From: Escherichia phage ECO07P3
Strand: one strand, 5' to 3'
Sequence record: OP172786
DNA length: 64,000 nt
Every line of letters starts with the position of its first letter. Position 1 is the stretch's first letter. Position numbers and translations under genes: made by a program. Shown one piece after another: positions 40,585 to 43,248 of the stretch. The notes beneath the pieces were generated by a model. That model saw only the letters and a list, made by a program, of their open reading frames with translations, searched no databases and was not told the DNA's origin.

Positions 40585-40607
40585 GCCCCAACCTTTTGGT
40601 CGGGGTT
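40585..40607 (-). terminator. intrinsic terminator (RNA AACCCCGACC-AAAA-GGUUGGGGC + U5)
   Basis: Plus gccccaaccttttggtcggggtt preceded by taccaaaaa. Confidence 0.65.
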
Positions 40608-40795: not shown

Positions 40796-41089
40796 TTAAC
40801 AATATTTTTTTTCTTGTGTAGCTTTAGGATCTGCTTTAGGAGCAGGTTTACCCGAAGCCTTTGCAAAAGCAGCACCAGTAGCAACTAAACTTTTCCAGGC
40901 CATACTAACCGCATTTCCCGTAAATCCTTCGGCTTTCATATCACGAGCAAATTGGAATCGTGATTCATCGGAAGCATCTTTATAGGAATATTTACCCGCG
41001 GCAATGGCAGCTTTTGCAACAGCTTGAATTTCAGTGCTAGATGCTTCATTTAACACCGCTTCATTTAAAAATTGAGCATATGATTTCAT
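40796..41089 (-). CDS. internal-protein-like protein with capsid-targeting sequence; possibly frameshifted
   Basis: MKSYAQFLNEAVL... with LNE at residues 8-10; the ORF ends just after an A8 run (plus T8 at 40805-40812) and a 63-codon ATG-less ORF (40615-40804) continues in the +1 frame. Confidence 0.55.
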   Translation of the reverse strand: MKSYAQFLNEAVLNEASSTEIQAVAKAAIAAGKYSYKDASDESRFQFARDMKAEGFTGNAVSMAWKSLVATGAAFAKASGKPAPKADPKATQEKKYC

Positions 41090-41140
41090 CTTATTTCCTG
41101 TTTTAATTCGTGGTTTTAATATACTTATTTATACTAAAAA

Positions 41141-41162
41141 GCCCCAACCTTTCGGTCGGGGC
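41141..41162 (-). terminator. intrinsic terminator (RNA GCCCCGACC-GAAA-GGUUGGGGC + U5)
   Basis: Plus gccccaacctttcggtcggggc preceded by ctaaaaa; near-duplicate of the 40585 element. Confidence 0.65.
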
Positions 41163-41164
41163 TA

Positions 41165-41470
41165 AGCCTTGCGGCAACCTTGTCGGGGTTCCACCTGCTA
41201 AGGCAAGTGTTTGTACGAAACGCCGGGATTCGAACCCGGTTATTAAGCAGTTGACGCTACTTAATATTTTTAAAAGGCCATATCTCGACCATATCCGAAC
41301 GTTCCGTCAAAAACGCTACTCGGCTTACGGCAAAGATATTTCCTCGAATCGATAATTCTGTGCGCCGTTTCTGCTGTGATGTAAGGGGATATTAATAAAT
41401 CATAAAGATTTATTAAGACCAGTCCTTACACAGGGAACATCAGTCCGACGACTTACCGGTAGCGACCCGG
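41165..41470 (-). ncRNA. candidate stable structured RNA(s) distal to the tRNA cluster (position of T4 rnaC/rnaD)
   Basis: About 300 nt with no ORF between the 41475 ORF and a terminator; contains a canonical T-arm mimic (CCGGG-UUCGAAU-CCCGG) and a perfect 10-bp stem (UUAAUAAAUC/GAUUUAUUAA), but no complete tRNA cloverleaf. Confidence 0.45.
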
Positions 41471-41474
41471 TTTC

Positions 41475-41825
41475 TTAATATTCTTTTAAAGCATCAATCT
41501 GTTCACGACGTTTACGCCATAAATCAATTGCTTCATACGCAGATTCAGCATTTCGAATTGGACGGCATTTATATAAAGACTCGTGATTTTGATATTGCGT
41601 AGATAACGTAATTTTATCTAAAAGGTCTTTACGTTCAAAGTATTCGTAACCATCTAAGCCAAATGAACGATTTTTGAGAAATTGCCAATGACCATATTCG
41701 TTTTCGACATAAACATAATCCGCGTGTTGATAAAGCAAATTAATTACACGTTCAGAAATAACAGTGTCATTGTGATTAAAATAAAATGTTAAATCATGAA
41801 CTACTAAATAAACATTACCTTTCAT
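41475..41825 (-). CDS. hypothetical protein
   Basis: 116-aa ORF, ATG at 41825 after GAGGAAAAT, between tRNA-Arg and the ncRNA region. Confidence 0.55.
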   Translation of the reverse strand: MKGNVYLVVHDLTFYFNHNDTVISERVINLLYQHADYVYVENEYGHWQFLKNRSFGLDGYEYFERKDLLDKITLSTQYQNHESLYKCRPIRNAESAYEAIDLWRKRREQIDALKEY

Positions 41826-41841: not shown

Positions 41842-41917
41842 TGGTCGAGGCAGTAGGGATCGAACCTACGACCTAGGACTTAGAAGGTCCTTGCTCTTCC
41901 TTCTGAGCTATGCCCCG
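41842..41917 (-). tRNA. tRNA-Arg (anticodon UCU)
   Basis: 76 nt incl. CCA; manual cloverleaf: acceptor CGGGGCA/UGCCUCG, D-stem GCUC/GAGC, anticodon loop CUUCUAA, T-arm GUAGG-UUCGAUC-CCUAC. Confidence 0.85.
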
Positions 41918-41921
41918 TAAT

Positions 41922-41997
41922 TGGGGTGACCGATGGGAGTCGAACCCATGACTACGAGAATCACAATCTCGAGTTCTACCAACTGAACTACGGCCAC
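41922..41997 (-). tRNA. tRNA-His (anticodon GUG)
   Basis: 76 nt incl. CCA; acceptor GUGGCCG/CGGUCAC, discriminator C73, anticodon loop UUGUGAU, T-arm AUGGG-UUCGACU-CCCAU; no encoded G-1. Confidence 0.75.
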
Positions 41998-42111
41998 ATT
42001 AATACCTACTCCAACAATCAAGATGTCTTCACACGAAATTAAGAGAAGAGTGATCAGTTCAACCCCGATAATCGCGTCAAGTAGATATTAATGTGACAAT
42101 TGTCACAAATT

Positions 42112-42186
42112 TGGCGGACGTGATAGGATTCGAACCTATAACCAATCGCTTAACAGGCGATCGCTCTGCCATTGAGCTACACATCC
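42112..42186 (-). tRNA. tRNA-Asn (anticodon GUU)
   Basis: 75 nt incl. CCA; acceptor GGAUGUG/CACGUCC, anticodon stem AUCGC/GCGAU with loop CUGUUAA, T-arm AUAGG-UUCGAAU-CCUAU. Confidence 0.8.
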
Positions 42187-42190
42187 AAAT

Positions 42191-42277
42191 TGGTGGGGAG
42201 TGATGGAGTCGAACCACCCGAGTCGCAATGACAATGGATTTACAGTCCACACCGCTACCTCTACGGGATAACTCCCC
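42191..42277 (-). tRNA. tRNA-Tyr (anticodon GUA), long variable arm
   Basis: 87 nt incl. CCA; acceptor GGGGAGU/ACUCCCC, anticodon stem GUGGA/UCCAU with loop CUGUAAA, long variable arm, T-arm GGUGG-UUCGACU-CCAUC. Confidence 0.7.
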
Positions 42278-42290
42278 TTAATTCTTAATT

Positions 42291-42365
42291 TGGTGGCCCT
42301 GGGTGGAATTGAACCACCATCTGGCGATTATGAGTCGCTTGCTTGAACCTTCCAGCTACAGGGCC
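42291..42365 (-). tRNA. tRNA with CAU anticodon (Ile-type as in T4, or Met)
   Basis: 75 nt incl. CCA; acceptor GGCCCUG/CAGGGCC, anticodon loop CUCAUAA, T-arm GGUGG-UUCAAUU-CCACC. Confidence 0.75.
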
Positions 42366-42366
42366 T

Positions 42367-42442
42367 TGGTGCTGATTGACGGAATCGAACCGCCGACATC
42401 CTCATTACAAGTGAGTTGCTCTACCTACTGAGCTAAATCAGC
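42367..42442 (-). tRNA. tRNA-Thr (anticodon UGU)
   Basis: 76 nt incl. CCA; acceptor GCUGAUU/AAUCAGC, anticodon loop CUUGUAA, T-arm GGCGG-UUCGAUU-CCGUC. Confidence 0.85.
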
Positions 42443-42447
42443 AAAAC

Positions 42448-42537
42448 TGGCGGAGGCGATAGGATTTGAACCTATGAGTCGCCGGAGCGACTGCCGGTTT
42501 TCAAGACCGGTGCATTAAACCACTCTGCCACGCCTCC
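42448..42537 (-). tRNA. tRNA-Ser (anticodon UGA), long variable arm
   Basis: 90 nt; sequence GGAGGCGUGGCAGAGUGGUUUAAUGCACCGGUCUUGAAAACCGG... with anticodon loop CUUGAAA and T-arm AUAGG-UUCAAAU-CCUAU. Confidence 0.85.
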
Positions 42538-42539
42538 AG

Positions 42540-42613
42540 TCTCCATACAAGGATTTGAACCTTGGGCCTCCTGATCCCAAATCAGGCGCTCTACCAAACT
42601 GAGCTACACGGAG
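42540..42613 (-). tRNA. tRNA-Pro (anticodon UGG), CCA not encoded
   Basis: Acceptor CUCCGUG/UAUGGAG, anticodon loop UUUGGGA, T-arm CAAGG-UUCAAAU-CCUUG; abuts tRNA-Ser as in the T4 Pro-Ser dimeric precursor. Confidence 0.85.
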
Positions 42614-42623
42614 TAAATTAAAT

Positions 42624-42697
<74 letters not shown>

Positions 42698-42702
42698 AAA
42701 TT

Positions 42703-42789
42703 TGGTGCGAGAAGTGGGACTCGAACCCACAAGGAAATCATTCCGCAGCATTTTAAGTGCTGTGCCTTTACCAATTTGACCATTCTCGC
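42703..42789 (-). tRNA. tRNA-Leu (anticodon UAA), long variable arm
   Basis: 87 nt incl. CCA; acceptor GCGAGAA/UUCUCGC, anticodon stem CAGCA/UGCUG with loop CUUAAAA, T-arm GUGGG-UUCGAGU-CCCAC. Confidence 0.85.
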
Positions 42790-42790
42790 G

Positions 42791-42863
42791 CTGGGAATAA
42801 AGGACTCGAACCTTTGCATCCTGGAATCAAAATCCAGTGCCTTACCAACTTGGCTAATTCCCA
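42791..42863 (-). tRNA. tRNA-Gln (anticodon UUG), CCA not encoded
   Basis: Acceptor UGGGAAU/AUUCCCA, anticodon loop UUUUGAU, T-arm AAAGG-UUCGAGU-CCUUU; 1 nt from tRNA-Leu as in the T4 Gln-Leu precursor. Confidence 0.85.
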
Positions 42864-42960: not shown

Positions 42961-43248
42961 TTACCATTTATGATAATACATATTTACGATGCATTCAAGA
43001 CCCAAAGGATTCTTGAAAATATCATATTCAAGAGGACCTTTTTCTGTTTCAATAAAGAAATCAAAATTTACTGTATTAAATTTACGGTCTTCCTTTACTA
43101 ATTTAACTTGAGAAGATGAACGGTCAATGTAAACCTTTTCAACTTCAAAACATGTTAAAATGCCATAATCATCAATCAAGGCTTTAGCCGCATCTTGATC
43201 ATATTTATATCCATTTTCAATGGACGATACTTTCGCATAAAGAATCAT
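42961..43248 (-). CDS. hypothetical protein
   Basis: 95-aa ORF upstream of the tRNA cluster. Confidence 0.5.
   Translation of the reverse strand: MILYAKVSSIENGYKYDQDAAKALIDDYGILTCFEVEKVYIDRSSSQVKLVKEDRKFNTVNFDFFIETEKGPLEYDIFKNPLGLECIVNMYYHKW

Follow-up and report, generated by a model that had tools for sequence, protein, structure and literature searches.

Fold and distribution of the species 1 and species 2 stable RNAs at the 3' end of the tRNA operon of Escherichia phage ECO07P3

The 3' end of the tRNA operon

The 64,000-nt stretch of Escherichia phage ECO07P3 analyzed here computationally (sequence record OP172786; hereafter the window) belongs to a Tequatrovirus, i.e., T4-like, genome, and the region under study is the 3' end of the phage tRNA operon on its minus strand, where orthologues of the T4 genes rnaD (species 2 RNA) and rnaC (species 1 RNA) are followed by a conserved trailer and by the intrinsic terminator of the operon (Table 1). 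The initial annotation, made from the sequence alone, had regarded this stretch as the probable counterpart of the two T4 RNAs, and the homology searches bear it out: a 421-nt query matched 806 of 50,697 phage records by BLAST, nearly all of them Tequatrovirus and relatives, and in curated records the matched stretch is annotated as non-coding RNA (ncRNA), named rnaC, "small stable RNA; species 1 RNA", in T4 and Kha5h, and in RB68 given as rnaD ("species II RNA"), a 5-nt gap and rnaC. The alignment with the T4 rnaC/rnaD region that had been proposed as a check showed both genes to be orthologous, rnaC over its full length and rnaD with a shared conserved core. Without gaps, rnaC is identical to T4 rnaC at 136/139 positions (97.8%); one of the three differences falls at a bulge, and the other two (A:U to G.U and U.G to U:A) keep the pairing. 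Identity is lower for rnaD (103/119, 86.6%), with the differences confined to the apical domain, and highest for the trailer plus terminator (77/78, 98.7%). The order of the elements, tRNA-Arg, then rnaD, 5 nt, rnaC, trailer and terminator, is also that of T4, whose two RNAs measure 139 and about 120 nt, respectively. Covariance model R1 scored rnaC at 156.5 bits, as the sole copy in the window, and model R2 scored rnaD at 145.5 bits.

The two genes have been known since the 1970s and carry annotations in T4, RB68 and Kha5h; recognizing them here is hence no discovery. What is new is the four-way junction of rnaC, its co-varying hexaloops, the residence of rnaC in tRNA slots in at least eight genera and the diverged rnaD-like RNAs reached through a covariance model. 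Taken jointly, the identity of the two genes, the context of their biogenesis and their secondary structure are, in our judgement, very probably as set out below.

Table 1. Features of the rnaD/rnaC region in the window, and rnaD-like RNAs in other phage loci (strand as in the respective record; nt numbers in feature names count along rnaC)
Feature	Position	Strand	Remarks
tRNA cluster, 11 genes	41842..42863	-	ARAGORN and Rfam
116-aa open reading frame between tRNA-Arg and rnaD	41475..41825	-	matches phrog_3355 (function unknown); no Pfam family
rnaD, orthologue of T4 species 2 RNA, about 119 nt	41358..41476	-	alignment to annotated RB68 rnaD and to T4
rnaD 5' hairpin, ACCGG-GUCGCUA-CCGGU	41455..41471	-	5 bp and 7-nt loop; folding, covariation
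rnaD apical perfect 10-bp hairpin	41392..41416	-	replaced by at least 3 different hairpin variants in other phages
Spacer AAUUA between rnaD and rnaC, 5 nt	41353..41357	-	presumed processing site; RB68 annotation and alignment
rnaC, orthologue of T4 species 1 RNA, 139 nt	41214..41352	-	maps exactly onto T4 rnaC
P1, acceptor-like stem (nt 2-8/131-137)	41345..41351 with 41222..41216	-	CGAUUCG/CGUUUCG, two central U.U
P2, long arm of about 70 nt (nt 9-78)	41275..41344	-	five helical segments; 3-nt 5' bulge under a 6-bp apical stem
L2, P2 apical hexaloop UUGACG	41305..41310	-	complementary to L3
P3, 10-bp hairpin just 5' of the T arm (nt 87-112)	41241..41266	-	9 Watson-Crick pairs and 1 G.U
L3, P3 hexaloop CGUCAA	41251..41256	-	proposed kissing partner of L2
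P4, T arm CCGGG-UUCGAAU-CCCGG (nt 114-130)	41223..41239	-	abuts P1 exactly as in tRNA
P1 3' strand CGUUUCG and U-A tail	41214..41222	-	genome continues CA: U-ACA, not U-CCA
Conserved 3' trailer, 50 nt	41164..41213	-	hairpin CACUUGC-CUUA-GCAGGUG at 41209..41192
Intrinsic terminator of the tRNA/stable-RNA operon	41136..41163	-	AGCCCCGACC-GAAA-GGUUGGGGCU, then U5
Diverged rnaD-like RNAs in other phage loci	L004:1116-1214; L007:329-427; L017:6807-6905; L130:240-337; L027:2278-2370(-); L005:1156-1280		found with model R2

The upstream part of the operon differs from that of T4, which carries 8 tRNA genes and segB. The window has no segB and 11 tRNA genes, running on the minus strand as Gln, Leu, Gly, Pro, Ser, Thr, Met-CAU, Tyr, Asn, His and Arg according to ARAGORN and Rfam. 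It also has a 116-aa open reading frame (ORF), the stop codon of which lies directly against the rnaD 5' end. The initial annotation had rightly sensed that this ORF sets the locus apart from T4, where no gene lies between tRNA-Arg and rnaD; an ORF of this kind occupies the same place in T2, RB68 and one Mosigvirus.

The region itself was expected to be free of ORFs and highly structured, and it is both. No sense-strand ORF of at least 30 aa lies within 41136-41474, the lone one being a 24-aa frame with a TTG start over the terminator; on the other strand an 81-aa ORF with a GTG start (41110..41355, +) runs into a stop codon in T4 itself, and across the homologues neither strand keeps any frame open. 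Many T4-like genomes in GenBank place one to three "hypothetical proteins" over rnaC and rnaD or leave the locus blank, and the 81-aa antisense ORF of the window, which is not conserved, is of the same kind as those calls. As to structure, 351 nt fold at -132.7 kcal/mol versus -93.4 ± 5.7 kcal/mol for shuffled sequences (z = -6.9), and the parts folded alone give z values of -4.1 (rnaC), -4.0 (rnaD) and -3.7 (trailer plus terminator). All of the structural elements listed at the outset are present on the minus strand, including the T-stem-loop CCGGG-UUCGAAU-CCCGG, the perfect 10-bp hairpin (UUAAUAAAUC-UUUAU-GAUUUAUUAA, all Watson-Crick) and, at the end, the intrinsic terminator with its 10-bp, 7-GC stem and U run. 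An Rfam scan, likewise proposed at the outset, was run at gathering and at permissive thresholds and returned in the region only chance-level matches (nse_sRNA, tRNA-Sec, isrK, mir-251 and anti-hemB), all far under their gathering scores; it was uninformative because Rfam 15 holds no family for either rnaC or rnaD.

Predicted fold of rnaC

The statement of the initial annotation that no cloverleaf can be completed is right as far as a canonical tRNA goes: within 41136-41480 ARAGORN reported neither a tRNA nor a tmRNA, and the Rfam tRNA model (RF00005) had no match at rnaC or rnaD, the only match of its clan being tRNA-Sec at 17.3 bits (E = 2.6, gathering score 47). It does not hold for rnaC in the wider sense, as the minimum free energy (MFE) fold of the window's 139 nt, computed from this single sequence, is a cloverleaf-like four-way junction closed by a 7-bp acceptor stem. 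Homologues of rnaC were gathered from phage records, IMG/VR and metagenomes, and 24 distinct sequences were aligned; 22 of these 24 reached the same architecture independently, with both hexaloops held unpaired. Over the alignment 90.8% of the cells are paired, versus 32-48% when the partners are slid by 1-3 columns, and the covariation score amounts to 0.284, versus 0.143 ± 0.010 in shuffled alignments and at most 0.096 with the partners slid in the same way. Twelve pairs are changed on both sides. At the third pair of P1, 9 sequences have A:U and 15 have G:C, the middle pair of the T stem is G:C or U:A across the homologues, and P3 carries changes on both sides at 9 of its 10 pairs, while the tandem U.U of P1 is invariant (24/24), as is the AGGA/GGCC junction. 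The predicted junction is thus distinct from the canonical tRNA cloverleaf, and covariation supports the fold.

The long arm P2 comes in two unrelated sequence types, both of which are present within Karamvirus. The two types share the same pattern of helical segments, with a 3-4-nt 5' bulge under a 4-6-bp apical stem, and the total length of rnaC is 138-142 nt with either of them. Analyzed apart, they are 98.4% and 91.9% paired, and three of the four pairs of the apical stem of type 2 covary. Judged from these comparisons, P2 appears to be held in shape rather than in sequence. Two other structural readings were discarded along the way: a K-turn at the base of P2 (A-A/G-G mismatch) was ruled out, the mismatches not being tandem sheared G.A, and a pairing of the rnaC 3' strand CGUUUC with GAAACG at the rnaD 3' end was dropped because elsewhere rnaC is found without an adjacent rnaD and its own 5' end is the co-varying partner.

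The apical hexaloops of P2 and P3, L2 and L3, are perfectly complementary in all 27 distinct homologues aligned, of both P2 types, despite the divergence of the stems that carry them. In at least eight genera UUGACG and CGUCAA recur as exact hexaloops on two otherwise divergent hairpins, and in Marfa-like Klebsiella phages they read UUGGCG and CGCCAA, a compensatory change of A:U to G:C that is carried by four closely related sequences of the 24-sequence alignment and by Marfa itself. These comparisons suggest that L2 and L3 pair as a kissing-loop lock; the kiss is well suggested and still short of proof because the double change amounts to one evolutionary event. In a geometric model, P3 (10 bp), the kiss (6 bp) and the apical P2 stem (4-6 bp) would stack to about 20-22 bp, a length that matches the remaining P2 (about 20-23 bp), so that an intramolecular kiss would be feasible if P2 folds back at its conserved 3-4-nt bulge. 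The TTGACG of L2 was also considered as part of a sigma-70 promoter and rejected as such, since no -10 element lies at the right spacing and the Klebsiella version TTGGCG co-varies with the other loop.

Distribution of rnaC, and rnaD as a second RNA of tRNA clusters

In at least eight Tevenvirinae genera rnaC occupies tRNA slots of tRNA clusters. Except in Tequatrovirus, Mosigvirus and Gaprivervirus, it lies within the tRNA arrays: in Moonvirus and Kanagawavirus it follows tRNA-Met, and Gelderlandvirus, Karamvirus and an Erwinia phage have it between tRNA-Trp and tRNA-Gly. The array-embedded copies are separated from their neighbours by spacers of 2-13 nt, and U is the usual nucleotide ahead of the stem. 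Past the stem, most homologues continue with U-ACA and the Klebsiella-phage versions with U-CCA, and the annotated mature end in T4 is U-A. The search for more distant members remained within this range: R1, applied to about 190 further phage loci (1.8 Mb), gave no new members beyond Tevenvirinae and no second L2/L3 variant. When metagenome contigs and 185,579 species genomes were scanned for the pattern, just phage contigs and chance matches came up, and of the three matches L126 (GC-rich, a chance match), L123 and L129 (Gallionellaceae metagenome-assembled genome) none matches R1. No BLAST match to the whole region turned up in 5,426 E. coli genomes, and a host homologue is thus absent at this sensitivity. 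Two unrelated IMG/VR phage contigs (L058:1408-1518 and L062:2936-3050) gave weak full-length R1 matches of 17-19 bits, which resemble oversized tRNA-like genes of 111-115 nt; each of them has a 7-bp acceptor stem and a T arm, the latter flanked by an extra hairpin of 8-10 bp.

The second RNA is built differently. In the consensus structure obtained with RNAalifold from close homologues, rnaD consists of a 5' hairpin, a second, long and imperfect hairpin whose core is conserved (AAGUCGUCGG ... UGUUCCCUG ... AUCACAGCAGAAACGGCGCAC) and an apical domain that varies. Among close relatives the 5' half is invariant (AAGAAACCGGGUCGCUACCGGUAAGUCGUCGGACUGAUGUUCCCUG) and the 3' strand nearly so, AUCACAGC(A/U)GAAACGGCGCAC varying only at its start and at the A/U site. 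The closing A:U pair of the 5' hairpin is G:C in five close homologues and G.U in two more, and all five pairs of this hairpin covary once distant homologues are added. The latter were found with R2, a model derived from the close homologues. Its matches of 93-125 nt (19-30 bits, E about 1e-5 to 1e-2) fall in tRNA clusters of Marfa-like Klebsiella phages and of Moonvirus, Karamvirus and Kanagawavirus; rnaD therefore appears to be another family that resides in tRNA clusters, and its spread exceeds what BLAST by itself reveals. The diverged RNAs are unannotated in their own records and were missed by BLAST. They always lie upstream of rnaC, and in fGh-Ecl01 and ZX14, where the neighbours are annotated, they begin 2-7 nt after a tRNA gene. 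In distant rnaD, UGUU/AGCA is replaced by UAAU/AUUA, and the main stem has C:G in place of G:C as its inner pair. In the alignment fitted to R2, 14 of 24 pairs show compensatory change, with 95% of the cells paired, and such change is found in every helix but the invariant 2-bp helix 4. In this structural model, rnaD is a separate long hairpin with a core conserved in sequence and a freely exchangeable tip.

An experimental evolution study offers a possible functional hint concerning this tip. When three lines of BW-1 were evolved on E. coli ECOR34, just one single nucleotide polymorphism (SNP), 164264 T to C, became fixed, in every line, and it is called a convergent regulatory SNP there (PMC12685909). 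On the sense strand of BW-1 (OR125554.1) it is an A-to-G change at rnaD nt 74, in the apical domain (about 41392-41430 in the window), and turns CUAUG into CUGUG, the T2-type rnaD, restoring C:G in CACAG-UUUUA-CUGUG and shifting the predicted MFE from -25.9 to -31.0 kcal/mol; the pairing is not mentioned in that study. The change may reflect selection for an intact rnaD helix in the ECOR34 host, and it could equally be a reference or stock difference, given its fixation in every line.

Downstream of rnaC, the trailer surpasses rnaD in its conservation with T4, and in Dhakavirus JS10/JS98 it directly follows rnaD. Part of the terminator stem (AGCCCCGACCGAAAGGUUGGGGCU) recurs within the trailer (AACCCCGACAAGGUUG), and about 550 nt downstream there is another terminator, nearly identical to the first (40586-40605, -). 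The T4 late-promoter consensus TATAAATA is found just past the terminator (41126-41133, -), before a 97-aa ORF (41089..40796, phrog_2280), and a second copy lies upstream of the tRNA cluster (43202-43209, -); the total of 11 copies in the window is not above chance. The genes of the tRNA array are in general tightly packed, but tRNA-Asn and tRNA-His are set apart by an unusually long spacer of 114 nt (about 41998-42111, -), which contains near its start a perfect palindrome, UGUGACAAUUGUCACA; both tRNA-His and the spacer are missing from Kha5h and RB68.

Biogenesis and possible function

The tRNA-cluster transcript of T4 ends after the species I gene (PMC2330249), and the T4 literature describes the species 1 and 2 RNAs as derived from a long tRNA-cluster precursor. 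In ECO07P3, rnaD and rnaC would be transcribed within such a transcript and then cut out of it as discrete stable ncRNAs, most likely by the tRNA-processing enzymes. The predicted rnaC resembles a tRNA at the parts that these enzymes read, with a 7-bp acceptor-like stem on a genuine T arm, a -1 position that is mostly U and short spacers of the tRNA kind on either side; because it is tRNA-shaped where processing enzymes look, RNase P is the most likely maker of its 5' end. The 3' end would most likely arise by an endonucleolytic cut and exonucleolytic trimming to the stem, leaving U-A in place of N-CCA. In the mature molecule the arm of about 70 nt and the 10-bp arm would stand in for the D and anticodon arms of a tRNA, and the kiss between the hexaloops would probably lock the body as a rigid two-helix bundle.

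Several known RNAs invite comparison with rnaC. It shares with canonical tRNAs the 7-bp acceptor stem stacked without linker on a 5-bp T stem, the 7-nt UUCGAAU loop and a discriminator-like U. It also resides in tRNA slots, spaced as tRNAs are, and would probably be processed by the same enzymes, but at 139 nt it lacks a D arm and a 7-nt anticodon loop, carries U.U in the acceptor stem and is encoded with ACA rather than CCA at its end. The tRNA-like domain of tmRNA and the bacterial Y-RNA-like YrlA offer a likeness in principle, an acceptor/T-arm mimic on a big non-tRNA body that serves recognition by proteins and not decoding. Unlike tmRNA, rnaC has no tag frame, pseudoknots or encoded CCA, in agreement with the negative tmRNA searches by ARAGORN and Rfam; and while YrlA is closed by its Ro-binding stem, rnaC is closed by the acceptor stem, and the lone YrlA match (RF02553, 17.7 bits, gathering score 69) fell on tRNA-His/tRNA-Arg, off rnaC and rnaD. 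The two loops, complementary over 6 nt and held by a double change, recall the kissing complexes of HIV TAR-TAR*, ColE1 RNA I/II and phi29 prohead RNA, with the difference that both belong to one 139-nt molecule, in which they probably close an internal ring, and that no link to packaging or antisense control is apparent. Small RNAs (sRNAs) of the Hfq type differ in having an accessible seed, which rnaC probably lacks as its loops would pair mutually, and a terminator hairpin with a U tail at the mature 3' end.

With respect to function, a 2010 review gives the roles of RNAC and RNAD as unknown and reports no trans-acting regulatory T4 RNA as characterized, a 2022 omics study saw T4 RNAC by Northern blot and classed both RNAs as late, with function unknown (PMC9697503), and our literature search for a function or a published structure of either RNA yielded just statements of the same kind. 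From its shape and context we would guess, with considerable reserve, that rnaC is a non-decoding, non-chargeable tRNA mimic acting in trans, which would occupy a protein that reads the acceptor/T-arm half of tRNAs and would not act by base pairing. Such a protein, of host or phage, might be a defence toxin directed at tRNA ends or a tRNA-processing or modifying enzyme. The fuller proposal, that a kissing-loop-locked rnaC, paired with rnaD as families travelling together in Tevenvirinae tRNA clusters, is an RNA decoy or inhibitor of a host factor that attacks or handles the tRNA acceptor end, is unlikely to be right in all of its parts.

Several observations weigh against one or another part of the overall explanation. 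The putative decoy function is drawn from the shape and context of rnaC. Phage T4 deleted for its whole tRNA region is viable on laboratory strains, and any function of rnaC or rnaD would be conditional for this reason. Dhakavirus JS10/JS98 keeps rnaD and the trailer with no rnaC, and in the ZX14-type Kanagawavirus (L005, L125, L160 and L233) the T loop UUCGAAU has become UGCAUGC on a retained T stem. The kiss counts one evolutionary event plus invariance, no second L2/L3 variant having emerged from the further scans of IMG/VR, metagenomes and genomes, and it could be intermolecular instead. The predicted 5' end of rnaC in this phage could be U1, as annotated, or C2, as RNase P would leave it. 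Kosakonia phage 305, of the same genus as the ZX14-type phages, has a normal T loop.

The main rival to a role in trans is a cis-acting one in processing and stability. Under it, rnaC and rnaD would be structural modules of the tRNA operon that organize the endonucleolytic processing of the polycistronic precursor, folded blocks that shield the neighbouring tRNAs and the ORF mRNA from 3' exonucleases, and the stable RNAs would be by-products without any function in trans. We hold this to be possible, though on balance doubtful. Both RNAs always lie within or at the end of tRNA clusters and on the same strand, in T4-type phages they come after the last tRNA or ORF and ahead of the terminator, rnaC can freely exchange its P2 arm and rnaD its tip, and published reviews still name no function, all of which fits such a role; yet a mere spacer needs no co-varying hexaloops across genera, no tandem U.U, no AGGA/GGCC junction and no length kept at 138-142 nt, rnaC also sits in internal tRNA slots where 3' protection is not needed, and the core of rnaD is kept in sequence as well as in pairing. 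A further alternative replaces the intramolecular kiss with an intermolecular one, rnaC forming head-to-tail dimers or rings in the manner of phi29 prohead RNA and the multimer being the active species. Two perfectly complementary, co-varying loops on one RNA would permit it, and an intramolecular kiss does require a sharp turn of P2 (about 26 bp, against about 10 bp in P3). The lengths nevertheless suit intramolecular closure (10 + 6 + 6 versus about 20-23 bp), with a bulge at the turning point in both P2 types, and RNA is not known to have a role in T4 packaging, so that we rate multimers as quite unlikely.

Slightly less credible again is a role of rnaC and/or rnaD as base-pairing regulatory sRNAs with host or phage mRNAs as targets, although both have been called regulatory RNAs of unknown function (PMC9697503; PMC12685909) and rnaD does keep unpaired stretches, the loop GUCGCUA and a CCC bulge. 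The two best seed loops of rnaC complement each other and co-vary and are thus probably occupied, and BLAST against the 5,426 E. coli genomes revealed no similarity or extended complementarity, which together make this role less likely; in addition, mature rnaC stops about 50 nt before the terminator and lacks the usual Hfq-binding hairpin and U tail, the loop of the rnaD 5' hairpin is not kept in sequence in distant homologues, and no trans-acting T4 sRNA had been characterized by the time of the 2010 review. That the region is protein-coding, or a decayed tRNA pseudogene, is barely conceivable. The antisense GTG frame and the hypothetical proteins annotated here in many phage records would speak for coding, but the former is stopped in T4, no other frame is open across the homologues on either strand, the substitutions preserve base pairs and not codons, and the RNA has been directly detected in T4 (PMC9697503), while a pseudogene would not hold 139 ± 3 nt together with compensatory changes over at least eight genera.

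Few orphan RNAs in molecular biology are older than the species 1 and 2 RNAs. The decoy reading of rnaC, if true, would make it a case of RNA-based counter-defence, e.g., against a tRNA-directed anti-phage toxin, and would explain its dispensability on laboratory strains. Whatever their role, both RNA families reach well past T4 and neither is in Rfam, and adding the two covariance models to annotation pipelines would correct loci that are now blank or filled with "hypothetical proteins". The covariation-backed structures point to concrete mutants, in the junction, the tandem U.U and the hexaloops of rnaC and in the core of rnaD, and the structural model together with the extension of both families makes an old question of T4 biology more testable.

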